From Catajapyx aquilonaris (taxonomy: Eukaryota), in contig JYFJ02000077.1 in assembly GCA_000934665.2 (NCBI GenBank), forward strand, positions 62,001 to 126,000: 64,000 bases of DNA, given 5' to 3'. Within the stretch, counting starts at the first letter, position 1, and every line of letters starts with the position of its first letter. This document shows positions 6,248 through 63,687 of this stretch, in pieces. The notes below the pieces were generated by a model. That model did no database searches and was not told the DNA's origin. It was given only the letters and a program-made list of their open reading frames with translations. Both the position numbers and the translations under genes were made by a program.

Positions 6248-9213
6248 ATGGTGAAAAAATTTCATCCGTCCGAAGTCCTTATGATGGACGCTGAGGTCAA
6301 AGTGTACAAAAGAAGATGGGTCATGCTGGGACTGTTTTCCCTGTGCAACATGTGCAACTTATTTCACTGGATCCAATATTCAGTTATAAATAACATTATC
6401 TGCGAGTATTACAATGTCTCCGCATATGCTGTGGATTGGTTATCAATGATCTACATGGTGATGTACATCCTGTTGGTCATGCCTGCATCATACTTTCTTA
6501 ATCAAAAGGTAGGTCTAATTAATCAACAACAAATTTAATCATATCTTGCAAAGACCATGCAGATTTACTTTACTGCTTGCTTGCCTGCTTGCTTGTTGTA
6601 AATTTATGGCACCTACAGCTTTCTATCTATAGCAGAATAATTACTGGGTTAGCAAAATATATATTTCTTCAAGTTGGATGAAAGTTTTCAAAAGTAACGA
6701 GTGACACTGAAATGTTGGACTTCCTTGCACTTCACAGGGTTTGAGATGGACAGTTACCGTTGGAATATTAGGAACAGCCGTAGGAGGCTGGATCAAAGTG
6801 TTTTCAGTGAGTCCGGACCGCTTCTATTTGACTATGATAGGCCAAACTGTGGTGGCCACGGCTCAGAGCTTCCTTTTTGGCATATCAGCTCGTCTGGCAG
6901 CTTGCTGGTTCGGTCCAGATCAAGTTTCAACAGCATCCGCTATCGGGTTTCTCTTCGGAGAGGTATGCAATACAGTGAAACCTGTACAATGTACATAGAG
7001 GAAGCGCTCCGTTCCGAGGAAATTTTCAGAAGTTTCCGCTATGAACTGGTTTCACTCTGTGTTATTCAAGTGCTGTATCTATTTAAAGTGACTCAGTTTA
7101 TCCAACTCTCCTAAATGGTTGCACTCAAAGTGATACAATAAGTAACAGTCTGGACCTCTTACCACTGCGTGAGAGTGTCGGTTCGCTAAGCCTGAATGAT
7201 TTTTTGTGTAATTTTTTGAAATAGTTTTCTTTTTATGAGCTAATGAAAACCTAACAGAATAAAATAATAAATACATGTATCTATTGCATCTATGTAAGTG
7301 TTCGGTAATTGCAATTTTATGTCTAAATTCTAAGTTCTAAATTATAAAGTCTGACATTGTAATCGTTCAGGTGACCCCTATGGCGGCGCGGCAAAATAAT
7401 AGTAGGCTATATGAGTTTTATTGCCCTTTCAATGCAGCCACGTCGACTATCTATTAATAACTGAACAACCGCATTGTATGAACAGAGAGCACTTCCTGCT
7501 GAGTAGTAAAAAGTAATAAGCTATGCTCACCGGTTATTGCAGTGCAATTATGCCGAAAAGCAACGTGGCACTATAGTCGCTGATCGTGTTCTGGTATAAT
7601 ACGTCTATGCAGCATTAAATAGTTCCACAAAAAATGAGTCACTTTCCTACGGTATACAGACGCAGTTCCAGTGGTGCTTATTATTCATCCCTAGTATTTA
7701 ATTCATGTACATTAATGTATTCATGTATCCATTTACAGGTGGGTGTTGCATTAGGATTCGTTATACCACCTATAATGGTAGACGCTCACCCTCTTCAGGA
7801 GCAAGTTGAAAAAGACCTCAGGTTGATGTTCTACTGTGGAAGTTTAATTCCGACAGTATTACTCGTTTTCGTACTCATATGTAAGCAAGTTCTGCAAACA
7901 ACTAAATCACTGAAGCTTAATGTGACTAATTTCTGCCGTGTGCATTAAGGTTTTCGAAGGGCCCCACCTCGGCCTCCCAGCATTGCAGCGGCCACAGCAA
8001 ATGAAATTGCATCAGCAACTGACACTGCCAGTTTCAAGACGTCTTTAAAGAACATCATCTCAAGCAAAAACTATATATTTTTACTCCTCGCCTTCTCCAT
8101 CTCCAACTCAGTTCTGGATTCCCTCAACACTTTACTCAACAGTTTCATACTGTCACATTTCCCGGTGAGTTTCTATTAGCAAAAGACACAAGACCCGACA
8201 AAATAATTTAGAACTCTACGCTACACTCCACATATAGTGCACACTTCGTTGGCAAGGTTTCATTGAATTGTAGATTTGTGTCATATGTTGCATTGGAACA
8301 TTTCAGACAAAAGAAGAATATGCTGGAGAACTTGGATTGCTGAGCATCCTGACCGGATTAGTCGGGTCGTTTCTGTTTGGCTTGCTGTTAGATAAAACGC
8401 ACAAGTTTAGGTAAAAGTTTAATTGATTTTATCATCTGCATGGAGTAGACTACATGTTATGAATTGTGGAATAAGGCGAATATAGCCATCTGTTCTTGAA
8501 CAGTGTAACTATTTGGGATGCAATAATACTGAAATAACAGTTGCACTGCTTCTTTTCAAGGGCCACATCAATATTCCTGTACGTCCTACAAATTGCTTCA
8601 TTCGTTGCTTTTGGAGTATTCCTACAGATGGAAAATATTTTACTGGTGTACGTAATGATGGGTCTTCTTGGGTAAGTGACCAACGATTCTGGTGCAGTAC
8701 AGTGTCACACTATACACACACGGAAAAGGGATGACTTCCTAGAGAACCTGTGACAGTATTGTAATTTTAAAAAGGCCGGAAACTGACTACCGGAAAATAT
8801 CACTGGTTTTTATTTAGGAAAGACCTTTCCTAAATAAAAACCTCGCCTCCACTAGTGAAAGATCTTAGATCATTGTAGTTTCGACATTAATTTTATGTTT
8901 TGCATGTTCTGCTACTAATAACTCCATTTTTCACAGAGTTGGAAGCTACTCATTTTATACCGTATCATACGAGTATGCAGCAGAATTGACGTATCCTGAG
9001 TCGGAGGGGATATCGTCTGGAATCCTGAACGCCGTCATGTACTTCATGGGGATTGTGCTAACTGTTGTGTCTCGCTCAATTTTACACTTGTTCGGTGACT
9101 TTTGGGCGAACGTGTTTTACGTGTCGTGGTTGTGTGTCGGCTTCATATTTTGCCTTTTAATCCAAGGAGATCTGAAGAGGCAATATGCGCAGAACGGTTT
9201 TTATACGTCGTAA
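6248..9213 (+). CDS. FLVCR-family transporter, copy 3 (7 exons)
   Basis: Exons 6248-6508, 6738-6962, 7739-7880, 7950-8164, 8307-8410, 8561-8671, 8937-9213. Same intron positions and phases as copy 2, and the same motifs. Acceptor at 6225 suggests an upstream non-coding exon (possible donor at about 5808). Confidence 0.92.
8806..8842. repeat. Short hairpin palindrome in an FLVCR copy 3 intron
   Basis: ggtttttatttaggaaag-ac-ctttcctaaataaaaacc, 18-bp perfect arms. Confidence 0.8.
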
Positions 9214-9622: not shown

Positions 9623-12600
9623 ATGGATATACATGGTGATGACTCAAGGAGATCGAGCAGCGGTACAATCAGCAGCAGCAGTGACAGCCTTCAAAGAGAA
9701 GCTTCAGGTTGTATTTGCTCACTAAAACAATAACCTTCATCAACTTTCAATGTTCAGCTTAATTTCGTTCACACGGCTTAGTTAAGTTATTTAAAGCGCT
9801 ATGGTGGTGATAACCATTTATAACTTACATATTGGATATGCCGTCTATTCGATTCAGTGTGTAATCAAAGCTAGATAAAAGGTGAATTAGTTACATTAAT
9901 AGGTGGGCGTGTAGCAAAATTTACGCCACACACTAATCATTGCGACATGCTTGGAGACACAAGAACAGTATTTCGCCAGAGAGCAGCAGCACCACTTCCC
10001 CAGATATGCAATGCATATCGGTATATTACCGTGCATAATGAAAATAATGTCTCATATTCACGACTTACGAGTATAATGCAGTATATTGGACTTTCATAAA
10101 TGTGTATATCTTCTTTACTTTATCAATTGTTATGATCCATCACTAATTTATGAACTTGCCCACTTATTTGCAGGATCAAATGGCCGCCGTCACCGTCATT
10201 ACCATCACCATCGCCATTCCGTTATTGACCAATGTAAGAAAGTGAATCATGCCTGGCACATTATGACTGCTCATTTTCATATTTTCATATTTTGTGACAG
10301 CTACACCTCCTACCGAGCGGGTTGCATATCTTCTGAGAGACTATGACAGCGTGTGCAGCACTACGCATCCAATATTTTCAGAAATTGATGAATTGGTCAC
10401 CACCGGAAATAATGAGCTAGAATGGAAAGAAACCGCCAGGTATTTCCCTTTCACACTTCCATCTCCTCGTATATTTGTTACAATTTTTATTAGGTAGGGC
10501 TATTATATACGGTAGGACAAAAGTCAGCTAAAGTCCGGTATCCACGTACAAGAATCTCGCATACGAGGAGCTGCGAGGAGCCAACTGTGCATGCCCAGAT
10601 ACGAGGAAAGGGGAAAAAGTAGAAAATTTTCAACTTTTTCCCCCTTTCCTCGTATCTGGGCATGCGCAGTTGGCTCCTCGCGGCTCCTCGTATGCGAGAT
10701 TCTTGTACGTGGATACCGGCCTTAAGATATGTATCCGTGTAGATCTGAGCTAATTTCTGTTCGACCTGGGTATATACTGCAGGTGGCTGAGGTACGAGGA
10801 AGATGTTGAGGAAGGAAGCAACAGGTGGTCAAAACCTCACGTGGCAACGCTCTCACTCCATTCCTTGCTGGAGTTGAGGTGTTTACTGGTCAAAAAGACC
10901 ATTATTCTAGATATGGTGACGAATTCTTTAGAAGACCTGCTGGAGCAGGTCATGGATGACATGGTCGCTAAGAAGCTTTTGTCAGAAGAGAACAAGGATC
11001 ATGTTAGGGCCGCCATCTTGCACAAAAAGTCCGGTAAGAATCCCTCCCAATATGTCAGAGTTTATGTTCAACATAATCATTTTGCAGAAGCGTGCAAAAG
11101 AACGATCCTGAAGGATTTTCCTACCACCTTGCATAGAGAATCCAGCACTATATCTCAGTCCAGCAGCGTGATAGAAAGAGGTACTTTGGCAGTTTTCTTC
11201 CAATTCCGTTGTAATTCCACAGGAAATGCATGAAGTTCTTTTTTCCTTCCAGAAACATTTACCTCTATGACCAGGCAGGAACTTCCGGTTAGTAGTCTAC
11301 TCGACACCAAACTAAGATCCCCAATTATTTATACATAAAGTGCTATCTGCGTATCAGCGTATGGAATTCTTCCATGCAGCATATTTTGTGGACTATAAAG
11401 TCGCAAACGTGCTTACTTCTGTACCTACCACACGTTACGACATTCCCTTGGCCATGCTTCCCTTTCAGAACGCCACACTCATGAAGCAAATTCCTCCAAG
11501 AACTGAAGCCTCCAACATACTAATTGGGGAAGTAGGCGTTTTGACCAGACCCATCTCTGCTTTCGTGCGTTTAGCAGAGGGAGTGAGACTGACCGGCCTC
11601 ACAGAGATCCCTGTCAATACACGTTTTGTGTTCATCTTACTCGGTCCCGTGGTCAGTTAGACTTTCCATGCCAACCTTCACAGATTGAAACAAAGTCTAT
11701 GCTGTAAAACTTTTGTAAACAATCTGATTTAGGGTGGAATTAGTCGATATCATGAAATAGGACGTGCAGTGGCTACCATCATGACAGACGACGTGTTTCA
11801 TCTCGTGGCTTATAAAGCGACTAATAGAGAAGACTTGTTGGCAGGATTCGACGAATTCTTGGATTCGGTGACTGTTATTCCTCCGGGTGAATGGGATCCT
11901 TCCATCCGAATCGATCCTCCGGAAAACATGCCTAGAAGCAACTGGGTAAGTTTATTAAAACCATAATGTATGCTTATTTTTATGAAAATAAAAGAATGGA
12001 GCCTTCCTTTTAGCGATTAAATAAATACACAAACGAAAAAGAAGTAGACGAAGAGCTTGCGTCAAAATTATACAAGGATAAATGCGGATTATTTCTGAGT
12101 GGTCATTTCTTTGGAGGCCTTGTGAACGACATCAAGCAAAAGCTTCCTTGGTATGCCTCCTCCACAATACTATACAGTATATCCAGCTTCATACAAATTA
12201 TTCCAATTTACAAAACGTCGTTTCAGGTACTTGTCCGATTTTAAAGATGGATTTTCCATACAATCAATCTCGACAATCATCTACATGTATTTTGTATGCT
12301 TGACTCCAATCATCACTTTCGGAGAGATACTGGGAGATTTCACAGAGGGTCACATTGCTTCCGCCGAGAGCCTCCTTGCAGCTGTAATATGTGGTGTGAC
12401 ATATGCTCTGACATCAGGACAACCGCTTGCTATCCTGGGAGAAACTGGACCAGTTCTGGTTTTCGACAAAATGTTGTACCAATTTTGCAAGTAAATATTC
12501 GATTCAATAACAGCAGGATAATACTGTACAGTAATCTACGAGGTTCGATTGTTCAGTTTAAGCTTACTTTTTTCCCCCTTTTACAGAGATCAGGAATGGG

Positions 12601-15189
12601 AATACCTGCCATTTAGACTTTGGGTGGGTGTTTGGATCGGATTAATCTTGATTACCGTCGTGGCATTTGATGGAGTTGCTTTCATCAGCTTCATCACACG
12701 ATTTACAGAAGACACTTTCACGATGCTTATTGCGATCATTTTCATCTTCGAGGTAAGGGTGACATTTTTGTGGCGGGCTCCATTAAATTAGTAGGCTATA
12801 CCAATAACAATCCAAATGGTGGAGAAGAGTCAGCATAAGGTGATATCGTAAGTGAAAATTGATTAGCTCGCTTTTAATGATCCTAAACCATCCACAATGG
12901 AGATGTGATAATGAGTAAAAATTAATGTACAAACATATATCAGTAGATAAATCTTACACGATCGCTAGCGTTGATTGGAAAAAAACAATGCGGACATTGC
13001 TTCCAGGCCATCCGTAATATCAAGGATATTGGAGACAAATATCCCGTGATGCCCACTGATAATAAATATGTCAACTGCACCTGTGCTCCTACAAATAACA
13101 CCCGTTCTCCCCAAGATACATACTGGGCGGAAGTGCCACATCACGACTGCATTTGGGTGATAAGACTTATTCATTCAATTTTCTAGTTCAGAGAATGTAA
13201 TCTTCCTTAATCCTGCTTTGGCTTTCCGCAGAAATATAACGGCACCATGATAGGAGAAGACTGCAAATATCACCCTGACATATTCCTCCTGTCAGTAATA
13301 CTTGCATCGGGAACCTTCCTCATATCAGTCTGCCTGAAATATTTTCGCGACACCCCCTTTTTGTGTGAGAAGGTGCGATTTCTGATCAGTGACTTTGCAG
13401 TTGTCATTGCCATCGTAGCCATGACTTCGGCGGATTACTTTATAAGAGTACCCACACCTAAATTGAGCGTAAGTTGACGTCAAATTCAAGTTCATGTGTG
13501 GTGTCAAACTTGGATAAAATGTGCAGGTACCAACAACATTCCGTGTGACTAACCCATCACTGCGCGGCTGGTTCATTTCTCCTGCAAGTAATAATCCCTG
13601 GTGGACTCCTCTAGTTGCTTGCATCCCGGGCCTGGTCGCCAGCATTTTACTGTTCATGGACCAATGCATCACCACCCTGATGATCAACCGACGACAATAT
13701 GCTCTGCAGGTATGACTAGTCAGCAGGGTGTGAGAATAAGTGTGTCCGTCACGTAATTTGTATTTCAGAAAGGTTGTGGATATCATTTGGACTTGTTCAT
13801 ACTGGGTTTCCTAGTCGTAATTTGCTCCTGCTTGGGCCTGCCTTGGTTTGTAGCTGAAACTGTTCAAGCTCTCAATCACGTGAATGCACTGAGAGTCCTC
13901 TCTATCTTCAATCCTCCTGGGCAGAGTCCTCTCTTTATAGGAGTCAGGTATTGCTATTACGTAGTTACAATGTTGCATTTTACATGGTGGGGCAAAATCA
14001 TAGGCTCTATACCAAGCGTTGTTGGGTTGATTAATACGAAAGCAAATTTAAAGTAAAAATATTTCATTTATGAGACAAACCCTATAAACATGCTTCCTCA
14101 AAACCAATATGTAATTTTGCTCTCATATATTCTGCTTCACTTTCTAAACGCAAAGACCACTGTCAAATCAAAATCCCACCTATATTATTCACTATTGCCA
14201 TCTTAAAAAATTTAACAATATATTACCAATACTGTACAGTTGTACAGTACTACAGTACTACTTTAAGAAATGTGTTTATTTCATATACGTGTATATGTGA
14301 ACATTGTATCTCATCTACAGAGAGCAACGTTTGACAGCTTTAGTGACATTCATTTTCATAGGAATGTCGGTCTTGATGGTGCCTGTGCTAGCAATCGTTC
14401 CACGACCTGTCCTCTATGGAGTTTTCTTTGACATGGGGGCTTCTGTCCTCACAGAAATTACCTTATTTGAAAGAGTATGCATTATGATGATGGTTCCTAG
14501 GTTGCAACCAGACCTCATGGTCCTTCGAAAGGCACGTAAAATCATGTATACATCACATGCTTTGTGCTACCTGAGTATGTGCTGTATCTTTGCAGGTTAA
14601 GCTATCTAGAGTGAACCTCTTCACATCAATTCAGATGGCATGCTTGGCAGTGATGTGGGGAATTACAAAAACTCGAGTGTTGTCCATGTACTTTCCGTTG
14701 ATGGTAATGTACTGCATTGGATCTACATTATTACCCTCGTCTTAGAGTGGGTATTTTTGAGTGTAGTAACAATAGTGTGCTTTAGCTTATAGCAATGGTT
14801 GGAATGAGAAAACTACTGGATTACGTCTTCACTGAGAAAGAACTAAAATACTTAGACCATCTTATACCTAAAAAAATGGCAAGAAAGGGAAAAGTGGAGG
14901 ATGCTCCCTTACATAATGTAGTAAGTGAGCACTATTATAGGCATACGTACTAATGAAAACAATAGTCTTGATATTATGTATATGTGACTTGTATTTTTTC
15001 CAGGAAAACAAGAAACGTATTGAATGGGCAGATATGCAAGGAGCGTCCGTGTGTGGCATGTCCAGTACTGTCAACATAACTGATGAATTAAATAGCACTC
15101 ATATCTGGCAACATGTGAAATCAAGCATGAATACTGATCCTTCAAAGATGGATAGCCACGTGTTCTTCAGAGACAACGAGTCACAATAA
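9623..15189 (+). CDS. Divergent SLC4 (NDAE1/NDCBE-like) bicarbonate-transporter family paralogue
   Basis: Exons 9623-9707 (tentative start), 10174-10233, 10301-10439, 10783-11033, 11088-11180, 11253-11287, 11469-11651, 11733-11945, 12014-12150, 12227-12490, 12587-12752, 13007-13156, 13232-13468, 13527-13709, 13769-13947, 14321-14531, 14596-14703, 14786-14920, 15004-15189. Motifs [56 protein letters not shown]. No stops or frameshifts seen. 5' end uncertain; there may be an extra exon near 9900-10020. Confidence 0.9.
10532..10722. mobile_element. Near-perfect foldback MITE (PIF/Harbinger Tourist-like)
   Basis: Inverted arms of about 89 bp (AGTCCGGTATCCACGTACAAG... / ...CTTGTACGTGGATACCGGCCT), short loop, TAA on both sides (10529-10531, 10723-10725). 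Confidence 0.85.
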
Positions 15190-48600: not shown

Positions 48601-51120
48601 CTACTACATCATGTGAAAGCCAAAACTGTTTGGCAAGTTTCACCCCACTTCCGAAGACGTGGAAATACTTTCACACGCTATTACTTTGTTGAAAACTATT
48701 CTCAACCGCTTCTAAACTAGAAACCTGTCTAGAGGTGATGTTGGAATAGCAACGTTTACGTCAATTCGCCAAGAATAGACGTTCTCTCTGTTTGGAAGCC
48801 ACGGTGACTACATCCGGGCATATGAGAATATCCCTCCGACATTGATGTCAACGTACTTACGTCGCTGCGTATATACGAACAGGATTTATTTTTTTATCCA
48901 ACCTGAACTTTGCTGATATCTGTGTAAGGCGTGTAATTCCCCCTATAAAACCGGCTCTTTTTTTCTAGTTTTATTGACGCCACGTATACGTGGTACGAGC
49001 CTTGTGTTTCTAAGGCGAAAATGCTGTCCAAGGGCTTTAGGTTTCCAATGCCTGACCTTGGTTGAAGGAAGTTAGGGGAGGCTTGAAAAATTGGGGTTGG
49101 TAGTTTCAAGTATGGGTTGGGGTTGGTCGTTCCAAGAGCAGATGGTCAGGGTTGCATGCTGGGAATGAAAAAAAGAGGCAACAGTTGGAATAACGTACAC
49201 GTATTACATATTCTACTTTTGCACATGCGTCTTTGAATTACAATGAATTCAAAAGATTGGGATCAAGTTGAAGTTTTTTTCGAAACGTTTTCTAGGAGAC
49301 GGTTTTGCTCGGCTATTTACAATCCGGTGAAAGACAAGTGACATTGTGTGGTGTCCAAGTAGGTCAAATGCAAGGAACGACCTCAATTTGGCACCCAATT
49401 GCGTCATTTTGTAGGTTGATAACACGTCGGAAATAAAGCCATCAACTTTAAGCTAAGCCAAATAATGTAGACACACAGCCCAAATGCGGCTTACGTATGT
49501 GAATATTTAACGCTCTATGCTTATATAACAGCACCTGCTAATTAAATAATCCACCGTAAGGTTGGCACAAAGTCATTTCAGAATACCATTACTAGGACTG
49601 TGCCTATTCACTACAGTTCTGCTTTCATTGTTTTTAAATGATTCAAATTAAATTTTGCGACCCGACACTAAATCATCACCTGAAATAAGCAATCAACAGC
49701 CATTCAGTTCAATTCATTGACCCGATCCGATTACGATTCCACTTCGCGTTCATCCCTGATTCATTGCTCGAACTTGGTAAATAGCAGGTTTGTGACGCGC
49801 CTAAATCCATGGTATTAGCCTGTTACCACGATTCTAGAGCCAAGTCTGAGGTCATCCACCTCAACGGCTTCTTTCAAGTGCCCATATGCGGACTTTAGCA
49901 AGGACGCTTCAAATAGTCATTCTAAGCAAAGGGAGGTGTGTGTTCAGAATTAATTCGAGTCTTGAAATAACCTATATCACGCGCCATGTGATTCACACTT
50001 ATCACCAACATTGCGAAAATACAATATCACTCGCGAATTTCGACGTCATATTATGCGCTGGGGAAGTCTGCAACAAAAGCGCAACAGTGCAATATGGCAA
50101 CGCATCCCGGAGCAAACCACCAGAATCGATCTATGGTGGCACCAACATGGGCGGCTTTTCCTGAAAGTAGTGCAGAGTGATTGACTGGCTTTTGAGAGGG
50201 TCTTTTACTATAGGAGATTGAGACACGCGACATTCAACATATAGAACTCATTCATAACAGACCAATGTATGTTTGGAAATATGATGATTTGGCATCGTTG
50301 CTTCGTAGGACCGATAAAAAAGAACAGATTTTGGCACAAGTTCTTGGACGCCGTCAGTGATGCTTTTGACTCCGGTCTGTTCACATGGTCGTCGGTGACC
50401 CAATGGAAATCCCCGCATTGTCGATCGACCGGTGTGGTGTGTATAAACGTTTTGCGGATTTCGTATGAGCTGGACGCAACATGTAAGTTTGCAAATTTAT
50501 TATACCGGTACATTAAATATAGCAGGGCAGCTGATATGATTAAGCTCATTGCCAAGTTCAAGAGGGTGATTTGTTGCTGTTCAGCTTATCAGTCGCTATT
50601 CGGTGTCTATCAGTAAATAGCAGAGTAAGCTTGATGGATTTAAAACAGGCGCCGCTAGGGTGGCGCTCACCTATGTTTTATAGTCGTGTCACCTACTTCT
50701 GAGCCCACATTTTAAGCTTTATTTCATTAAAATTGATCCCCGCAGTGGCCCCCACGGTATTGCTTACCAAAGTTCAGCTGGCGCTATACCAACCCTCCGC
50801 AATAACAATGCTTTCCAGCCCCATTATAGCCTCATTTCGGACCGCCTCCTACATTCAGGCCTGTTTGTCCAAACCCTGAAGGTTAATCGGGAAACAATTT
50901 GAGAATTAGGCGGTTGTCAAGTTTGTTTGCGTCCTGAGTTCTCCTATTGAATGCATTCACCAAAAATGGGGGTCTTTCAAAGTCAACAGGATCCGGATTC
51001 CGGACGATGAAGTAGAATGGTTATGGGGTTACTAATTGGAAATAGTGCGTCAGTAGGACTGGTTCCAGATTGCTTATAAGTGAAGCTGAACACTAAAGAT
51101 GGTCTATTTCTCTTCTGCAG

Positions 51121-54100
51121 GCCGTGGGTGATGGAGCCTAATCCAGGTGACGAGGAGGCACCCAAAGACCCGGGTGCCCATCAGACTCACCAGAGCTACA
51201 CAGAGCAAGACTATGAAGGTAAGAAAAATAAAAGCTATTGTATGACGCACCTTGTTAATATAAGTAGTCATTAGTAGATGACGTTACAAAAGTTATTTGT
51301 TAAAATGTACTGTACGTCGGTTCAAAGAGAATCACATATTATAGCAGCTGCATATTAGCTGAGTATGTGGTGAAAAAATAGTACGTCACAATGCGACAAA
51401 TGACATACTAACCTTGCAAACACTGGCGTTGATGGCCATGAATATGTGCATATTAAATGAGTTGATTCTAAATTACGTTGGCAGATTATGATTATAAATT
51501 AAGATGAATTCGGTCACGCTTTCGCATAATATGTGTCCAGGCGCAGTAAGCTAGTGTGATCAAGTATGGATTATGTGCCGACTTTTATATGCCGCACTCT
51601 AAGCTTTGTTTAAAAGTACGTCAAGGCTGATCAGTAATTCTGATTGAGGAAGACTTGATTAGCTGCTGGAATCTTTATAGGCTAAATATGTAGGTGCGAA
51701 AAAAACCTGACGCAAGTGTTTAGCAAGGTCGGTTAGTGATGTATTAAAAAGATACAGGCCTGGGTTACCCCCATTGCCAAGTGGCCGTGAAGGCTGAATA
51801 GAACGCAAAATATGCAGATGTCGAACCTAATTAAAATATTTAAGATGGTTAAAATATGATTACAGGGCATCGTGCGCACACAATGTATGTGGGAGTTCAT
51901 CTCCCTGGACATCGACGTCGCTCTCATCGTCGTCATCACCACCATCGTCATCACCATCGCAAAGAAGACGATGAAAACGATAGGCCAGGTATGACCTATC
52001 ACATTTTCTCTCTTATTTCGTGTCCTGTTCTTTGACAATGTAAAGTGAGAGTTACTGTCATATATGTTCACAAATATTTCTGTATTTTTCCTGTGCCTTC
52101 ATTTTACTTCCTACTCGCGAGCAATAGAACCGTCGAACCCGCATATTTAAAATCGTGCAAATGTTTCAACTCTCTAGATTAGTTACGTTAAAGGCTCCCC
52201 CGAAATACCATGACCACGCTGAATTATTGTGTATTTGGTGTCCCGAATTCATTGAGCAAACACCAGTCGTATAATTATAGAAACCGTGGGGGTACGGGTG
52301 GAGCAAGGGGATAGCATCTGAAAGGACACTAAATACCTGGAGACACGTGTTGTTTGTAGTAGCAAACACCGCCAGTTATGACCACAGTTGCGAAATGCGT
52401 GGGATTTATTTTCCCGTGGTTGACGTCGGTATACGCATCTATTCCCGCCGGATGCCTTTTGGCAACTATCTGTGGTAAACATTCGAGAGCGAGATGCGGG
52501 CCGTAATATTGCATTTCAAATCCCGCCCCATTGTCAGCGATACTATACACTATCACAATACTATCAATCAAACGTGGGCGCTAAAACTGAAAATTTGCCA
52601 TTGACCTTACAGCACGATCAGGTTGTTTTGACTGAAGTGTTACCTAAACTAAAGTGGGCGATATCATCAAGATTCTGATCAATCAACCTTCAGCATCAAA
52701 CTTTACATAATAGCCCTTGGAAATTTGGTTGTTTCCACAGCCAACGAAGCCTTTACCTAACCCTCTCGGCGAAAATGGCTCCCTAGAACCGCATTACTCA
52801 GGCGTTAGGATCAAATTGATCGAAACTGAGGCGCCCTCTAGACGGAGGAAAAGAAAATTAAAGATTTGTTTCTAGAACCTCACCTGACCTACCATTTAAA
52901 GAGAGAAAAAAATATCGGATTAGTTCGCGTGCGAGATAACTCCCATAACGCCCCCAATAGATAACCCGGAGACCTGTGTTCTTTTTTTTCTTCTTTCTTA
53001 TACGCATTCTACCGGTTGTCGCAACGACCTTGGCCCAAATGCCACCCACACTGCCAAAATTTGGCAATGTTGGCCCCTTCCCACCGGCGAATCGATTCGC
53101 CGGTTTAGTTCGTCAGGAAGGGTTTTTATGGCGCCTATGCGCAGCAACCATGTTACGTCAAAATTTCTGTGTTGCGCAATTAGTTTGAAACTTACTCCAA
53201 ACAATAATTGTCAATGTAATGCCAACGGGGAATTTTCATCGGAAGCATTATATTCACTTTCCAGGCCAAATCTCGCCCTTGCACCGAGTCCCATGTGTAG
53301 ATGGAGAAGGGAATGAGAAGCAGTGTAAGCATTAGGCCTTGTCTGCCAGGATCTGTCCTCTTCTCTATGCCTCCGTCTTGCACAGCCGAAAAAAAAGAAC
53401 ATACATCTCTTTCACTGCATGACGACAACGTCTGAGCATGTGCTTGCATTTTCCTCCTGTGAAATTTCTTGCACGGTTATTTACCATTTTTTTGGACCAA
53501 GAGTTATAGGTCACATCATTTGCGTTGGAGGTGTAGCATAATATTGTCACGGACATATTATAAAGTCATGGCCGGAAGTATATGTGGTGTAGCGTACATC
53601 GCTTTTTGTTTTCGTGTTGATTGCATAATGAAGGGAATATTGAGCTGTTAGATAGACTTCGTGTTTCTAGACTTTTCGCTTCAGCTATATCACTGTTGTG
53701 CCGGTCAGATCTAGAAAAAATATAGTCCCTGACTCCATACGTGTATTATCGTTCATGTAGGTGACCATGTAGAGGATCTTATTGTTATTGTCAATATTGT
53801 TGTTAGGAGCAGGGCTTGACATGGCTGATACTAACCGGAACATCCGTTCACTTTCGTATAACTTTAAAGCTACCGTACTGTGAGTGTTCAGGTACGTTCC
53901 GGTCCATATCAAGCACTGAATAGATGTTTCTAAACATATATAGCATTCACACGCTGTTTCCACCTTTTTGCTTATGGGCTGTTACTTTTTTTCCATATTC
54001 CTGTTTTATGATAGTCACCAAATCAATGTCACATCACCACTACAGAAAACTTGAGTGTTCTAACATTATATTTTATTGCCACAGGTTCAGCATAATTATT

Positions 54101-57100
54101 ATTTCTCCTTTTGTTGCAGTATATAGTGTAGTGCAGTCTTTATAGCGGAAAAACACGTTTTTTGGCTATACGTATGGTGTATATTTTCAGGCGACGCTTT
54201 TAATTTGCAACTCGATGCCTTTTTATGAATATGGCAATACACACACACGCCAATGCCATTCAACGTTGATCAGCTTCTGTCACTAATTTATATTTTGACT
54301 TCTTTATTTATGTTTCATGTTGCAGTTACTCCTCCTGCTCAACGAGTGCAGTTCATATTGGGGGAAGATGCCGCTGATATCAATGGCTTGCATGAATCTC
54401 ACCCACTCTTTTCCGAAATGGAAGAATTGGTACTGGACGGAGGAGAAATGGAGTGGAAGGAAACTGCCCGGTTAGTTACCGTAATAGCAATGTACCAATG
54501 TAAGTCATCGGCCGAATGGGAAGCTATAATGTCCTTTCAAAGCGCCATTATTTTGGTTTCCCGTTTTTGACCCCTGTTCGTTTCGTCCAAACCACACTTT
54601 TTTCCGTTTGCGCTTCATTCTCGGAAAAAAAAAACTAATGCAGAAGCGATGTGATGTCACATTCACATTACCAGGGGGTGAATGGACTTTTCGAGTCGCC
54701 GCCATATTTGTCTGGTTGCCTGATCCAACAAAAATGGCCTCAAAAGATTGGCTATAGCTGATGTAATGGCTTGATCGATTTGACGTCACACCATTTCCAT
54801 AATTTCTCCTTCCAAGGAGAGAGAGAAAGAGAGATCATTATGAACAGTATTGTTTCGTTCATATGTTTTTCTGCTTTCACCCGCTTTGTTATCCATCCAC
54901 ACTCCCTTTCTTCTGCTAAGTAGATCATAGTTCACATATGCATGTTTGGACTTTTCACGTAAGCAACAAAGTCAAAGTTGTACACCACCGATGGACTGCA
55001 GTGTTTCGATCGTCATTTTCCAGGTGGATTAAATTCGAAGAAGACGTGGAAGAAGGTGGTAACAGGTGGTCAAAACCACATGTGGCCACCCTGTCTCTTC
55101 ACTCCCTGTTTGAACTACGAAGTATGTTGCTCAACAATACCGTCATGCTGGACATGGACGCATCATCTTTAGATCAGATAGCAGATCTGGTTTTAGACAA
55201 TATGATAAATTCAGGGCAGTTGGCAGCGGAGTCCAGGGATAAGGTCTTGACTTCAATTTATATGCAAAAGCCAGGAGATGAAGCACAATGCTAATGGCAA
55301 GTGCTTGTTTCAGATTCGAGAAGCTCTGCTACGTCGCCATAGGCATCTTCACGAACGCCGCAAAGAAAACAGCTCAAGTAACATGTCTCGGTTACCAATC
55401 ATCCGTTCGTTAGCGGAAATTGGAAGAAGCCACTCTTCTTCAAAAAGTAAGTGGAGGGTCTTTTCTATGGCTATGAGTAACACTTTCGATTCTTGGCTTG
55501 TAGGATATACAGTAGTACAGTATACCCGGTACTTTTGGTTTTGCATGGGCGCCTAGAATCTCCCACGATATTGTGCGGTGTTCTGAAAGAAGGACGTATG
55601 TATCTTCATCGTCTGCAAGTTACAACGCTAAACTCTGTTGACGACAATAGCAATAGATCACTACTGGCATAAAGGCAAGGAACAATATATCACTGTAGCA
55701 GGACAGAGTGACTTGTGGACGGTGGTTGATATGTGCTTATTTTAGGACACACTTAATATTCAACAGCACGGACACGATTATACACGCTTATGTAGGAAAT
55801 ACGTATTTTCTATCAGCGCAGAGTAGGCAAAAGTGAACATATTTGTGATGTCTGGGATGACTTGCTGCATTGGTTCATGTGTAGATAGTTTCAGGTGTGT
55901 ACTTATCTCTTAATCCCCATAGTCCACACAATCTCATGATGACCCCCGCTCTCGGTAGAGAGCAGGCCATACGCATTGATTTGAATTTTCCAACATAGTC
56001 TACTTACATTAGCTCATAGCAACATCAGGTTTGCTGTAGTTTTAATCACGTCACTCCATCAAGATGGGTTCGTCATATGTCACATTCACACATGCCCAAT
56101 TATTATAGGTACAGTAGTATTCAGCGTGACCACAGCTTCACCCAAAATCGTAGAGTTTTATTTTGTTTATTTATTGTAGTGTGAGGCCTTTGTAGGAGTG
56201 TCCCAAAAGTTTGTAGCAATTGTATACAGCCTCAAGATAAATCATTGTTTTTCATAGTTGGGCCAATAGGTCATGTTTTCAGTACACTGCATCAGCACAT
56301 CAATGTAGCTGTCAGGTGGAGCAGATCAACAAGTCTGCTTTGGAAAAAGTGTCCCTGCTGCTCAAAGGTACACACCTCAGGTATTAGTAACTGGGATTTT
56401 CAAATCCATTGGTTGAACTTTGTACTGTGCCTTGATCCAGCGGACTGAAAGCAATGTTTGCTCCCCCTCCCCTGCCCTCCCCCACCCCATCTAATCTAAG
56501 CAAATGTGAAGGAGGTTATCAAGACAGCAAAATATGAATTAAGGCATTGTCTCAGATAATGTTCTTGAATGACCCCAGCCTGTAGGTAGATGCTGCACGT
56601 CTTCCTCCTAACATTATCGACTAATACCATCTTCTGCCCCCACCCTGCGAAGCAAGTACTGACAATTGCATCAGTGGTATTCCGTGACAAAGGAAACTAG
56701 TCCATGTTTTAAAAAAACAACTGTATATAAGGTTGTGTTTACTTGCTTTTATCACGCAACAGGCAGTGGCTCTCTTGCCAAGGGAATATGCGCGTTACAA
56801 ACGTAAGAGCCTCCAGCCTCTATACAAAATGTGACATCTCTCACAAATGGAAAGATCCTGTAAGTCTTTCCAGTTGAATGCAGTCACGTGATACGGATGC
56901 CTTCGCGTTCATTTCTGATGGAAGGCAATCACGTGAGGCATGGAAGGCACATTTGGTGGAGAGGCTGTTCAACAATTTATTTCACTGAGGAAGTTTATAA
57001 TTTTCTGTTCAGGTTGTTGCTAGCATCATGACCTAAGGTGAATTTTAATAGTGAACTTGGATTTGAATATTAGGGAAAATAATGCACACTTTCTGGTGAA

Positions 57101-60100
57101 CTTCACTTTTACCTCTGAAATTATAACTAGCAACGACCTCAGAAATATTATTCATATATTCAGTCACCTTAACCTTGAACAGTTTGTTTCTCATGATTAA
57201 AAATCCAGTAATGCGTATCAACCCTGTTTTTAACGGAATTATTAACGTGTTCAATAAGGAAATGCAGAACAGTTTCGAAGGTCACGAGATTCCACTTATT
57301 TGCACGATACCGCTCCGGTGGGAACTCATTTGGGCCATTCGTGTGTATACTGTCGAGTCTTGTCCCTTCTCACGTGTGTGTTGACTATGTATATTTTAAG
57401 AGTTTCGTTGTTGCAAAATAAATGAATGAAGCAGACCAGCGCTAATGGATAAATGTTCCTCTTCAGTGGAAGACCCTCCAGGGGTTCCAGCTTCACCTGC
57501 TCCAGCACCTTCCTCTGCTGACACCTTAAATGAGCCTCCCAAGTTTGGCCGGTTACTTTCTGTGCCTGGTACTACACTTGGTACAGTAACAGCTAGCAAG
57601 GAAGCTCGTTATTTATTTATTTTTATTGCTGTGATTTAGATCAGCCTAATGGTTTCTTTTGAATCAAGACTAACGTTCCAGTCTGCTGTCCTTGGGAATG
57701 TTCACTTAAACGTTCAGTTTCCTGGGGAAAGTGTTTTCTTTTTGAGCTGTGCTGCTGCAACTGTATGCAACATATTTCATGACGTATTTGATGTGCAAAT
57801 TTCTTTTCTCCCCTCATAGTTTAAACTTGCTCCTCCGTTTTGAGACTGTCCTCTCTTGAAACAAGTTCGTTTTGCATGCTTAGTGATCGAGAATTTGCGT
57901 TGTTTCAGCAGCCGAAATATTACGCAATCACATATCATTCGATTAGTGGGCTAGCAACGCAAATTCTGGATCATCTGGCGTCGCATTGCGTGACCAAACT
58001 ACAAATTGAATGGACTTCCTATTGGAGAACATTATTCCAGAGGTATTTCCTGACTTGAACCGGAAATTAGTAAAGCTTAATGCGTTTTAAAGTTATGTTC
58101 ATACTGACCACCGATTCATACAGAGTGTAATCTTGAATTGTGGTTACACCACACCTATTGGTTATGATTATGAAAACAAATCGTGGAATCAGTGACATTG
58201 GCCTTTACGAATTTTCATGCTTCCCAGTATACTGACTATAACTTAATAAGTAATGGACAAGCTCAAACACTCATTATTATACTAACATCATTATTCGTTT
58301 TCCTGTTGTTTCTTAATTATGTTTCACTAATATTAGTTGCGGGTTCACGTTTTCTGCCCTCGAAGCAGACTGTGAGAATGTTCTCTGTTAATTTTCTGTT
58401 TTGGCATAATAACCTGCTGGATGGAACCCGTATGATTTTTTTGGACTTCTTATCACACAGCAGCTGCGTTTTGCTCCTAGCTATTAATATCTAGGCATCA
58501 CAAATAATGTTCCTGTTGATAATATTAATTTCTATTTATTTAGTATTACTTTGACTTGCATGACGCTCAAGTATGACTCTATTACCTTTATACCTGTGCT
58601 TTTTATACCTTTAAAAAATCAGTGCAATGCAGACCAATAATAGGCATGTCCACATAGGTGGAAAGTGTGCTTCTCATACATGTATGCTGTATATAAGGAG
58701 TCCCACACAACATAATTCATTGTGTACGGCAACGACTAATGTTCAATTAAATATTTTAGTCGAAACCTATTTAGTGCTGCATATCTTTCTAAAATATTAT
58801 ATAATTTATTGTCTGGGACACCTGTAAGCTTTGATAGTGCTTGAAAAGGATCCTAGTAATATTCAGCATAAAAATTAGCAATGCCCTTTGAAAAAGTGGG
58901 CAAAGTTGCACGTGGTATGACAATATCTAATTGTAACTTCCACAACGCCTGATTTTGCAGTACATCAATTTAATCACTTCATAATCAGGCCTATTTGAGG
59001 CATTTAGCTCCTGTAATACTGCAACATTTGCCCTGGGTTCTCATGCCAAGTGCCCTTCTAGGCACACCCAGTGTACCAGACGGTATGGAACACAGCCACA
59101 GCGGAGCTTCCATTGGTCATGTCGAGAGTGGCACCGGCCTTGCAGAGCAAAACGGGGACAGTGGCCACCAAAAAGTAAATATATTATACCGTCGTGTCTA
59201 TAGCTGACAAGTTGGAAGTTCTTACAAATATAATGCACCCTGGCAAGCGAGGAAATGTCACACCACATATTTGTGAATTTATCATATCATAATTTCCATT
59301 TACTGACAATGTTCCTCGCCACCTTGGCGCAATTCAGAGCCAGAAAATCCGACTTGAAAAGCTTCATGAATTTCACCTGGATGCGAAAATTCTCTTAAAG
59401 ATTGGACTGCCTGAATCCTTCCAGGGCAACACTCACTTCATGAGGAAAATACCGCCTGGTGCGGAAGCCTCAAACATTCTAGTTGGAGAAGTGGACTTTC
59501 TGGAAAAGCCTCTCTCCGCATTTATTCGCCTAGCCCACGCCACGACGCTTGGGGATCTCACTGAAGTTCCTGTACCTACTCGCTTCCTTTATATTTTACT
59601 TGGTCCATTGGTAAGCTTGTCAAACTAAAGTGGGTCCAACCGCAGAAAATCTTATCGTAAGTTTCTGGGGATGCCTGCAGGGAGGTATTTCGAGATACCA
59701 CGAGATTGGACGAGCCATGGCGACCCTGATGTCGGACGAAGTGTTCCATGACGTGGCGTACAAAGGGAAGCATCGTCAGCACCTTCTGGCTGGTGTCGAC
59801 GAGTTCCTCGACGCCGTCACTGTTCTTCCGCCGGGAGAATGGGATCCTAGCATACGAATCGAGCCACCAGCAGCTATTCCGTCTCAGGTACGTCGACACG
59901 TACTAACACGTTTCATTGCAGGGCAATTATTATGTGGGTAAGTTATCCCTCTTTCTGATGTCCGTTTGATTACAGATTCACTGTAAAACGTAGCATTATT
60001 TGGGACACCCGCGGTTTCGCATATCCTGTGAGTGCCACAACCTGCAGCACATTCCCCACATGTGGTGGTGGCACTCATAGGATATTCGAAAGACGCGAGT

Positions 60101-63100
60101 GTCAGCAATGGGCAGTAAGTTCTTTGGCCAACAGTAAAAGTCGCAGAAAATGGACCTGTTCAATGCCACAGGCAATTTCATTTTGTGGTAGGCCTATTAA
60201 ATCGAATCGGCTGACATGGAAATGTATTTATTGAGAAGTTACCAATATATACGTACAGTATATTCACACCTGATATCCATTACCCAGATGTCATTGTATC
60301 TGTGTTTAGAAGTTGTGTTTTAAAAATTATGACCGAAATATCTTGATGACGAGAACTGGAATTCTAATGCTGTATATTTCAAATTAATTCTTTTTATAAA
60401 CGAAGGTGAAGCTTGTCTCTAAAGGTAGGCCTATTCTTTCACATTACTTAGCATAAAATTATGAAAATATATATGAGTGAAACTGCACAAGAACGTTAGA
60501 AAACTAACTAAAACAAGTGCGCAGTTGGATTATTCGAAATTCCTACAAAAATCTGAGATTACAAGAGAGTAAAATACACTCAGCCTCCCATGGGAAATCC
60601 TCATGAGTCTAAAATAATTTGGATACAGCTTTGTATATTCCCACTGATTGATTGCCAAATCCTGTCCCATGAGGAGCTAATTAATTACGCCAACTTGCAG
60701 GATCCCCGGAAACACCCAGAGAAAGGCAAGGACGAAGGCCACGAGGAAGAAGACGAAGAGAAGCTGAGGGCGATGTCTGGACTGACCCGCACTGGCCGTT
60801 GGTTTGGAGGCCTCATAAATGACCTCAAGCGGAAAAAGCCATGGTAAGTGTCGCATTCTACCCACTGGACCCTCCAAAAGAGTATGGGAAGACGAAACTA
60901 TGGGACTTCCCATTCAAATTTTCAGGTATTTCTCGGACTTTAAGGACGCCTTGTCCACTCAGTGCATAGCCAGTTGGATTTTCCTCTATTTTGCGTGTCT
61001 GACCCCGATTATCACGTTCGGAGGTCTGTTGGGAGAGGCCACCAAACAGAACATGGCCGCCATCGAATCTTTGGTGTCTGGTTTTGTGTGCGGAATTGGA
61101 TATGGTTTCTTCTCTGGACAACCACTCACTTTGCTGGGCTCCACGGGACCCGTACTGGTTTTTGAAACCATAGTGTATGACTTTTGCCAGTAAGTACCAG
61201 ACAACTCATTTTCAGATTGGTGGGGACATCAACTGGCAAAAAAAACACAAATGATAAATTTCATTGCAGTGGGCAAGATTGGGATTACTTGTCCTTTCGA
61301 CTGTGGATAGGACTGTGGATGGCACTGATTCTACTAATATTAGTTGCTCTGGATGCGAGCGCTTTTGTGTGTTACATCACTCGTTTCACGGAAGAAAACT
61401 TTGCCACTTTAATTGCCTTCATTTTTATTTATAAGGTGAGCGCCTCTGCTGTTTTAATAGGAATTAGTTACTCACAAAATCTCCTTTTTAGGCTGTGGAA
61501 AAAGTGGCAATGATCGGATATAAGCACCCTTATAATGTGCAATCTGACGTTGAATTTTATTCAAGCTGCAGTTGCTCACCCACAGAAAACAGCACGGGTG
61601 TGGACTACACCTTTAACTGGACTACCGTTCACAGATTGGACTGTACACCTGTAAGTTCTGTTCAGCCAGACACTGACGATTTATTTTCAGTAAGAAAAGC
61701 TCGTTACTGACATTCTTTCTCCCCGTCATTGCAGAAATACAATGGTACTCTCGAAGGAGTTGGTTGTGACTATGAGTCTGATGTGTTTCTTATGTCAGTT
61801 CTTTTGTTCATGGGAACTTTCTCTGTTTCCATCATTTTAAAGGACTTTAAAAATTCGTCCTTCTTCCCAACAAAAGTGAGTGTGGTCAAAAATGATCGGG
61901 TACCTCTAGCCTTGTCACCTTTGTTATCTGAGCTGTTCTTCTTGCAGATGCGCGGCTTCATCAGCGATTTTGCAGTCATCATTGCTATCTTCTCCATGAG
62001 CATTTTGGACATGTGCATGGGCATCAGCACTCCAAAACTCCAGGTACACAGTCATGTTATATTAGAAGTGCTTATTCAGCAGGATAATCATACATTTATG
62101 ACATCATCTGGTAGGTTCCTGAAACTTTGACACCGACTGACCCTACCAAGCGCACCTGGCTCATTCCTCTTTTTGGACTGGAAGGGAATAACCCCTGGTG
62201 GACACCACTCATAGCTCCTATTCCAGCACTTTTGGCCACAATCCTTATTTTTATGGATCAACAGATAACTGCGGTCATCGTCAACAGAAAGGAGCACAAA
62301 CTAAAGGTAGTGTATTGATATTCCTTCCTATTGTGTGGGTTCTTACTAGCATTCTTGGATTTACAATGAAAACAGAAAGGCTGTGGGTACCACTTGGATC
62401 TCTTTATCTTGGCCATCCTGATCGTCATATGCAGCATTATGGGTTTGCCATGGTTTGTAGCAGCTACTGTACTGTCCATAAATCATGTAAATTCCCTCAA
62501 GATGGAATCAGAATGTGCAGCTCCAGGTGAAAAACCCCAATTCTTGGGTGTCAGGTAGGAAAATATTTTTGTTATTATTTTCATAACGCTGTTTTGAAAG
62601 AGCTGCGCCTAATCATAGAATTCCACCTCCAGGGAACAACGTGCCACACACATCTTAATATTCCTCATGATTGGATTGTCTGTCTTGTTGACACCTCTTC
62701 TGAAACACATTCCAATGCCAGTTCTCTTTGGAGTATTCCTGTACATGGGAATTGCTTCTCTAAAGGGACTCCAGTTTTTCGACAGACTCTTGATCATGCT
62801 CATGCCTGGCAAGTACCAGCCGGACTTCATGTTTCTGCGGCAGGTAAGGTCTGCCTGAATCGAAGGCCGTCATAAGATCTTATGATCGTAATTATTCTGC
62901 AGGTGCCTCTGAGACGAGTCCACTTCTACACTTTAATCCAGCTGACTTGTCTGATAATGCTTTGGGTCATCAAGTCATTCAAGCAAACATCCATCTTGTT
63001 CCCTCTTATGGTTTGTGGTTACTACCTTGTGAATTTCAATCTTATGAAAGAATTAAAGTAATCACATAAGTGTACATCTTTCAGCTGGTGGTCATGATTG

Positions 63101-63687
63101 GCCTGAGAAAGTTACTGGATTTTGTTTTCACCCAACGAGAACTAAAAATCTTGGACGACATTATGCCTGAAACGACAAAGCGCTCAAAGGCAGAGGCGGG
63201 AGTAAAGGATGATGGGGATGAGACACCCTTCCCTGGGGTATGACTGATTCTTGAATTGATGTGACAAGTGGGTGAGACATTATGCTAACATTATTGAATG
63301 AACATACAGAACCCGTCTGATAACAATGTGGAAGCAGGAGGAAATCTCAAGATTCCATTAGCAAATGGAACTGTCATGAACATCCCCATAAATATATCTG
63401 AAGAAGTAAACAAATCGGGAGTCTGGCACCAAGTCAATACTGGAAACAAAGAAAACAAAGAGAAAGAGAAAGATAAGGACAAGGAAAAGAAACACTCTAG
63501 GTAAGTCCACATACTTGAAAGTATGAGTGGTGTGTAAATGTGTAAACTGTCTTTCAGTAGCAAGTCTAGAAAACGTGGAAGCAAAAAAGATGCCGTGAGT
63601 GAGGACGAAAATAAAAGGCTATCAACAATGGCAGAGGAAGAAGAAGATGATGGAATTACTATTAAGGTAGCAGAAACGAAGGGGTAG
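51121..63687 (+). CDS. Ndae1: Na+-driven anion exchanger (NDAE1; SLC4A7/8/10-like), canonical copy
   Basis: Exons 51121-51218, 51866-51988, 54326-54470, 55024-55243, 55314-55446, (57467-57568/57580), 59062-59174, 59425-59610, 59681-59887, 60701-60843, 60926-61189, 61270-61435, 61492-61650, 61735-61875, 61948-62043, 62115-62306, 62376-62554, 62633-62843, 62903-63010, 63085-63237, 63310-63500, 63558-63687. Motifs [11 protein letters not shown], poly-His/Arg, [41 protein letters not shown]. Confidence 0.95.
57467..57580 (+). CDS. Probable cassette exon in the NDAE1 N-terminal cytosolic domain
   Basis: cctcttcag acceptor; open Pro/Ser-rich frame [34 protein letters not shown]; phase 1-1 with two possible donors (57568, 57580). 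Confidence 0.6.

Follow-up and report, generated by a model that had tools for sequence, protein, structure and literature searches.

The transport mode of SLC4 proteins is ascribed to a few residues of their central ion site, S1, where an Arg together with a Glu stands for anion exchange and an Asp together with Na+ for Na+-coupled carbonate transport. We analyzed a 64,000-nucleotide stretch of the genome of Catajapyx aquilonaris (GenBank assembly GCA_000934665.2, contig JYFJ02000077.1, forward-strand positions 62,001 to 126,000; this whole stretch is called the window below). It holds two SLC4 genes, a canonical one of the NBC type and a divergent one, called the paralogue here, which carries a Glu at each of two S1 positions. 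Papers are cited by their PubMed Central (PMC) identifiers and from excerpts of their text. The exchangers AE1 to AE3 combine a Glu in transmembrane helix (TM) 8 with an Arg in TM10 (review PMC13263692), and the TM8 acidic residue (AE1 E681, NDCBE D800) is described as fully conserved across SLC4 proteins (PMC9959716). Closest to the paralogue are the Na+-coupled transporters NBCn1, NDCBE and NCBE, which have been solved (9ovr, 7rtm and 9mix). They have both of its Pfam domains in identical order and fall into the same clade, and they were the best match in the PDB for each exon tested. The canonical S1 composition is near-identical within this subgroup (PMC13263692). In NCBE, D831, T835 and the A876 carbonyl hold Na+, and T878 together with the T878 to L880 amides holds the anion (PMC13724665). 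In SLC4 proteins the anion is bound mainly through backbone NH groups (PMC13263692).

According to cryo-electron microscopy, S1 comprises 12 columns, namely those of NDCBE G536 to P540, D800, T804 and V844 to V848 (PMC13263692, Table 2 therein). At ten of these the paralogue has the residue of the family majority; in the remainder of the membrane domain it does so at 262 of 486 columns. The two S1 columns that differ both have Glu, one at the NBCn1 S667 column in TM3 and one at the NBCn1 A976 column in TM10. Of the 11 uncharged S1 columns, two gained an acidic residue, against seven of 373 outside S1 (p = 0.024 in a one-sided Fisher test made post hoc). The N-terminal ends of TM3 and TM10 are the anion site of SLC4 proteins, a statement of the preliminary description of this locus that agrees with PMC8478935 and with the review PMC13263692. 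Alignment to the solved chains revealed that the Na+-site residues are kept in the paralogue, as had been proposed: these are the TM8 Asp and Thr and the TM10 Thr. Asp765 (codon at 13659-13661) falls in the column where NBCn1, NDCBE and NBCe1 have their Asp. The paralogue also has the TM8 D-x-x-x-T and TM10 A-x-T-V patterns of the Na+-coupled subgroup, its T-G-P helix end, and no Arg at the AE1 R730 column. The S1 composition of the subgroup, G-S-T-G-P / V-A-A-T-V-L/I-S, however, is replaced by G-E-T-G-P / V-A-E-T-V-Q-A. Since the paralogue departs from this composition, its substrate should not be assumed.

The two Glu are not the only changes. Unlike NBCn1, the paralogue has Glu at S667, A976 and G628, Gln at L979, Ala at S980, Cys at Q932, Asp at Y1043 and Arg at M1034 (Table 1). 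The preliminary description had been built on ten motifs, five from each SLC4 copy. A six-frame motif scan recovered all ten in frame on the plus strand at the coordinates given, and the two GAA codons and the CAA codon named for the paralogue are as claimed. Its assignment of the changes to TM3 and TM10 stands as well, with the paralogue exons aligning gap-free to NBCn1 (9ovr_B) and NBCe1 (6caa_A), and the Asp that it had placed in a late TM occupies the TM12 Tyr column (NBCn1 1043, NDCBE Y913). Every residue change it listed is true. It missed the TM1 Gly-to-Glu change, the Met-to-Arg change before TM12, the difference in TM5 and a GC splice donor. The TM5-end column belongs to the entry site S2 (PMC13263692, Table 2 therein). 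There, vertebrate NBCn1, NDCBE and AE1 have an entry-site Glu, and the canonical copy (61433-61435) and several pancrustacean relatives have Lys. In TM13, the paralogue has a one-residue insertion at 14650-14670 beside the conserved Lys of the NDCBE K970 column. A candidate loss of this anion-site Lys was discarded as ambiguous on account of the insertion; HMMER aligns the paralogue Lys with the NBCe1 Lys.

Table 1. Coordinates of the paralogue, its altered sites and the canonical comparator in the window.
Feature	Position	Strand	Remarks
Divergent SLC4 paralogue, whole gene	9623..15189	+	17 exons, 1044 aa; ATG 9623, stop 15187-15189
Exon for TM1-TM3	12227..12490	+	PF00955 positions 18-104; gap-free to NBCn1 597-683
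TM1 Glu481	12324..12326	+	replaces second Gly of TFGG motif; NBCn1 G628 column
TM3 motif LGETGP	12435-12452	+	canonical copy LGSTGP at 61134 (+)
TM3 Glu520 (GAA)	12441..12443	+	column NBCn1 S667 / NBCe1 S484 / NDCBE S537 / AE1 F464
TM5 motif FTEDTF	12702-12719	+	canonical copy FTEENF at 61385 (+)
Glu at TM5 end	12750..12752	+	column NBCn1 E738 / NDCBE E608 / AE1 E535; Lys in canonical neighbor
TM8 motif MDQCIT	13656-13673	+	canonical copy MDQQIT at 62253 (+)
TM8 D-Q-C-I-T	13659..13673	+	Asp765 and Thr769 kept; Gln to Cys at 767 (NBCn1 Q932)
TM10 motif FVAETV	13847-13864	+	canonical copy FVAATV at 62454 (+)
TM10 E-T-V-Q-A	13856..13870	+	Glu811, Thr812 (kept), Gln814, Ala815
TM10 Glu811 (GAA)	13856-13858	+	column NBCn1 A976 / NBCe1 A800 / NDCBE A846 / AE1 T727
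TM10 Gln814 (CAA)	13865-13867	+	column NBCn1 L979 / NBCe1 I803 / AE1 R730
TM10 Ala815			column NBCn1 S980 (Ser)
Arg869	14403..14405	+	replaces Met of P-M-P motif before TM12; NBCn1 M1034 column
TM12 motif VFFDMG	14421-14438	+	canonical copy VFLYMG at 62733 (+)
TM12 Asp878	14430..14432	+	replaces Tyr; column NBCn1 Y1043 / NDCBE Y913
GC-donor intron (AAG/GCACGT)	14532..14595	+	homology-consistent junction; Pfam profile 488 to 489 across it
Canonical NBC-like SLC4 gene (comparator)	51119..63687	+	61% identical to Portunus XP_045135614

Work on relatives allows an estimate of what the altered columns do. The Glu811 column corresponds to AE1 T727, whose hydroxyl binds the anion (PMC13263692), and it sits between A876 and T878 of NCBE. 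Replacement by Cys at the corresponding alanines impairs both NBCn1 (A976C) and NDCBE (A846C), the latter by lowering activity (PMC8478935). In NBCn1, S667C, L979C and S980C alter function as A976C does (PMC12606367). By analogy with AE1 T727, NCBE A876 and T878, NBCn1 A976C and NDCBE A846C, TM10 Glu811 very likely contacts the ion position. TM3 Glu520 probably lies near it too, with a less certain role for its side chain; the corresponding Ser484 of NBCe1 is listed as an ion-coordination residue (PMC5834491). For the paralogue, the membership of these columns in S1 and the ion contacts of side chains there are transferred from this literature. Its Gln814 occupies the AE1 R730 column, as had been stated in the preliminary description and as an equal-length match to 4yzf_A 698-750 bears out. 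Judging by the title of a paper, R730C in AE1 reportedly causes a cation leak, a precedent for S1 point changes opening cation routes in SLC4 proteins. In NBCe1, I803R at this column blocks function (PMC5834491). A Gln at this position in borate transporters had been stated as well, and Q396 of ScBor1p is indeed homologous to R730 (PMC9959716); neither the excerpts of the AtBor1 paper (PMC11494103) nor a separate literature search yielded anything on this Gln.

To see how rare the substitutions are, residues were counted column by column in an alignment with 181 other family sequences. The TM3 Glu column has Ser in 119, Ala in 18, Gly in 18, Thr in 7, Gln in 5, Pro in 5 and Cys, Leu and Val in 2 each, and an acidic residue in none of the 178. 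Among about 71 validly aligned sequences, the TM10 Glu column has one Asp, in an unnamed transcript-like contig (P0097), which is the sole instance of one of the acidic changes of the paralogue in the sampled Na+-coupled members. Two apparent cases of Glu at this column (P0096 and P0063) were rejected as misaligned, frame-shifted tails. The TM1 column is Gly in 152 of 178 (Ala 16, Ser 8, Thr 1), with one other Glu (P0114), and the TM12 column is Tyr in 49, Phe in 13 and Leu in 3 of 65, again without an acidic residue. At the TM8 Asp column we found Asp in 68, Glu in 11, Asn in 4 and Met in 1 of 84, and at the neighboring Gln column Gln in 63 of 82 and Cys in none. The Met of the P-M-P motif is present in 47 of 70, with one other Arg. 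More variable is the TM5-end column (Glu 66, Lys 22 and Asp 14 of 116). At the AE1 R730 column, a Glu occurs in a Lingula anatina protein (XP_013390286, P0076), and a Gln in P0050 and in a Parastrongyloides protein (P0092).

Wider searches gave the same picture. A DNA-level scan of metagenomes recovered the TM3 motif with any residue at the Glu position at at least 119 loci (Ser 44, Gly 31, Ala 28 and other residues 16 among the matches listed), and at no locus with Asp or Glu. In protein word-index searches, the TM1-TM3 exon matched one relative at longer and one at near lengths, and the TM10 exon matched 12; every one of these has the canonical motifs. Blanks from this index are weak, as it also missed a crab protein of 67% identity. 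A search of representative sequences gave 1712 matches at E<=0.001, of which the best 150 were inspected. In all other SLC4 members sampled, the combination of both S1 Glu is absent from the aligned sequences. A limited literature search on crustacean SLC4 paralogues found no description of an SLC4 protein with an acidic pocket; the excerpt of a copepod genome paper reports an expansion of the SLC4 family and no more.

The paralogue is an intact gene, as had been claimed. The preliminary description had placed it at 12421-14460, a span that holds the core of the gene, and the full gene extends from 9623 to 15189. Our splice model was built by keeping GT/GC-AG junctions in frame with the best fit to a guide protein, and the 5' region was read directly. 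It contains 1044 codons in 17 exons with consistent phases and no internal stop, joined by 15 GT-AG introns and one GC-AG intron; the junctions 11180/11341 and 14893/15004, in poorly conserved parts, are uncertain. Three exons match Band_3_cyto (PF07565, positions 26-294), each above the cut-off, and eight match HCO3_cotransp (PF00955, positions 18-550) in order, seven of them passing the cut-off singly. PF07565 precedes PF00955, which is the domain order of SLC4 proteins. Profile positions are contiguous between exons (104/105, 358/359, 488/489 and 523/524), which supports the model and, with it, the junction at the GC donor. The GT donors at 14535 and 14545, likewise in frame, break homology and would change the start of TM13. 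Frame disruptions, overall intron loss and loss of invariant residues, as expected of a pseudogene, were not found, and the intron positions are mostly common to both copies. The protein is predicted to adopt the 14-TM fold of 7+7 inverted repeats with short TM3 and TM10 half-helices. Its extracellular loop 3 is Cys-rich and glycosylatable, as in Na+-coupled SLC4 proteins. The paralogue is compact (5.6 kb, introns of 58-466 nt), whereas the canonical gene spans about 12.6 kb, some 3.8 kb of it in a single intron. Introns 55244-55313 and 61876-61947 of the canonical gene are lacking in the paralogue, whose exons 10783-11180 and 13232-13468 read straight through.

By its domains, its tree position and its Na+-site residues, the paralogue is assigned to the Na+-coupled branch of the SLC4 family. 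A FastTree phylogeny (49 rows) put it within a pancrustacean NBC-like SLC4 clade with a support of 97, where it and the canonical copy fall into an unresolved polytomy. Over 960 aligned residues, the identity between the copies is 46%. Their nearest database protein is the same for both, a Portunus trituberculatus "sodium bicarbonate cotransporter 3-like" protein (XP_045135614), which shares 61% of residues with the canonical copy and 47% with the paralogue; for proteins of Daphnia and Artemia, identity with the canonical copy is 57-58%. Silent differences between the copies are saturated (pS 0.80, with pN 0.34), which points to an old duplication and precludes a dN/dS ratio. The terminal branch of the paralogue is about three times that of the canonical copy (1.21 versus 0.37, with a median of 0.7). 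Among 43 full-length representatives, 122 columns show at least 90% conservation; 105 of them are kept in the paralogue, 118 in the canonical copy and 81 to 122 in other members. Of the 17 that the paralogue lacks, four fall within an exon that was absent from the early gene model, and of the conserved columns covered the paralogue keeps 105 of 118 (about 89%). An open frame of 1044 codons over 16 introns, combined with saturated silent sites, argues strongly against loss of function, unless it was very recent. We regard the paralogue as a complete, long-maintained and fast-evolving duplicate of a pancrustacean NBC/NDCBE-type SLC4 gene.

What might such a site transport? The preliminary description had proposed that Glu at both helix ends would disfavor (bi)carbonate, and on the sequence this is a reasonable supposition. 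We tentatively favor, while holding it to be somewhat more doubtful than probable, that tethered carboxylates have replaced the anion at S1 and that the paralogue is an elevator-type carrier of cations, or of cations and H+, rather than a (bi)carbonate transporter. The Na+-binding scaffold, made up of the Asp and Thr of TM8, the Thr of TM10 and the helix ends T-G-P and V-A-x-T-V, is retained, and the anion half of S1 would be filled by the protein's own carboxylates, placed where the dipoles of both half-helices are positive, so that they could occupy the anion position or repel an anion from it. Together with the TM8 Asp, S1 would then hold about three negative charges, so that CO3(2-) and HCO3- would be repelled and cations or protons favored. 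In the absence of a base anion, S1 could bind Na+ (one ion or two) or a divalent cation, protons, or both. Further changes lie around S1, namely the TM1 Glu, the TM12 Asp, the Gln at the AE1 R730 column and the Cys next to the TM8 Asp, and near it is also the entry-position TM5 Glu, where the canonical neighbor has Lys. That the two Glu carboxylates stand in for the carbonate itself, which would make the protein an anion-independent carrier of a cation (Na+ or divalent) or of a cation and H+, is a possibility that we regard as doubtful; the account of the SLC4 family excerpted from the review PMC13263692 has no such transport class. In this reading the orientation of the Glu, the loss of anion binding and the new substrate are inferred.

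Several observations weigh against this reading. S537C, L849C and Y913C do not reduce the activity of NDCBE (PMC8478935), and three of the changed columns therefore tolerate substitution in that protein. The side chains of the Glu may be turned out of the pocket, may carry a proton, or may form a pair with Arg869 or the TM13 Lys, and the net charge of the membrane domain (+1 in the paralogue, 0 in the canonical copy) is not unusual. An orthologue or second copy with these Glu was not found by the protein word index, among the best 150 of the 1712 representatives or in the metagenome scan. As the representatives stand for 50% clusters, an orthologue could sit hidden inside one. The Glu may consequently not have been conserved over time, and a very recent loss of function is possible. 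The long branch equally fits relaxed constraint, and the GC donor of one intron is non-canonical.

The paralogue may still be a Na+-coupled base transporter, which we consider rather unlikely, with its Glu protonated or turned from S1 and tuning pH dependence, stoichiometry, H+ coupling or anion selectivity, in a manner likened to AE1 Glu681, which serves H+/SO4(2-) cotransport. The central Glu of AE1 has a computed pKa of about 6.8 and works as an H+ site (PMC13263692). All residues that coordinate Na+ and the anion in NDCBE and NCBE are kept (TM3 T-G-P, TM8 Asp/Thr, TM10 Ala-x-Thr-Val), and both the binding of the anion through backbone NH and the tolerance of the three NDCBE columns would fit such a transporter. 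It would, however, have to work with two carboxylates added beside the existing Asp, and with a TM1 Glu and a TM12 Asp. Neither Glu is found in any sampled Na+-coupled member, and the TM10 Glu stands at the column where A976C and A846C impair relatives and where AE1 T727 touches the anion. With AE1 to AE3 the paralogue has the fold in common, as well as the I-T-T-L pattern that follows the acidic residue of TM8 and, at the R730 column, a polar residue, but it has Asp and Gln in place of their Glu and Arg, and the positive anchor for anions is thereby absent.

A non-transporting protein, such as a regulatory or heterodimerizing subunit or a sensor on the SLC4 fold, or a very recently inactivated copy without stops yet, seems unlikely to us. 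The threefold terminal branch, the absence of an orthologue from our searches, the GC-donor intron and the loss of several conserved charged loop residues would agree with it, yet the frame is open across 16 introns despite the saturated silent sites, and by a rough estimate 0.1 neutral substitutions per site would already give about a dozen stops. Moreover, the paralogue keeps about 89% of the conserved columns covered, and its S1 is better preserved than the membrane domain outside it. Very unlikely, in our view, is a carrier of a neutral or weakly basic polar solute (ammonia/ammonium, urea-like or boric-acid-like), in which the Glu would act as hydrogen-bond acceptors, with transport coupled to H+ or Na+. 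This idea draws on the UraA/SLC23 nucleobase:H+ symporters, where a Glu at the N-terminal end of TM10, a TM8 acidic residue and backbone NH of TM3 and TM10 contact the substrate: in UraA, Glu241 (TM8), Glu290 (TM10) and the NH of Phe73 and Gly289 bind uracil, and Glu241 and His245 couple protons (PMC5539350). The likeness is a functional analogy within the same 7+7 fold superfamily, and no sequence relationship is expected. It also draws on Bor1 and BTR1 (SLC4A11), members of the SLC4 fold that gave up Cl-/HCO3- chemistry: the paralogue Gln matches the Q396 column of Bor1p, and BTR1 illustrates a move from bicarbonate to H+/NH3-related transport (PMC13263692). These likenesses are limited to single columns, whereas S1 otherwise follows the NBC type and not that of Bor1, BTR1 or UraA, and the sequence names no candidate solute. 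BTR1 and Bor1 are far more distant from the paralogue than NBCn1 (E-values of 1e-10 to 1e-3 versus 1e-28 in the PDB). In BTR1, TM3 reads LTTAP and TM10 contains two His (PMC13263692), unlike in the paralogue, and the literature excerpts covered report no Glu at these helix ends in BTR1 or Bor1.

The two SLC4 copies are separated by an RMD1-3-like gene (regulator of microtubule dynamics; 17572-18270, plus strand) and a mitochondrial glycerol-3-phosphate dehydrogenase-like (GPD2-like) gene with DAO, DAO_C and EF-hand domains (23684-27140, minus strand). They are therefore neighbors and not strictly tandem. The 5' exons of the canonical gene, near 51119-51230 and 51859-51993, are known from tblastn matches only. 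Upstream of the paralogue, between 430 and 7000 of the window on the plus strand, the open reading frames 430-738, 4182-4541 and 6711-6995 match the same part of MFS_1, all below the Pfam cut-off, which suggests tandem copies of a major-facilitator transporter.

The paralogue bears on how the few residues of S1 are thought to set the transport mode of the family. If it is active, it would test whether Na+ binding and the elevator movement require a free anion, and whether few substitutions can switch the fold from anion to cation or proton transport. Should the paralogue instead be an ordinary NBC, then the negative charge that S1 can tolerate is far greater than in current models. As an active carrier, it would add an unrecognized ion-transport activity to the osmoregulation and acid-base physiology of arthropods.

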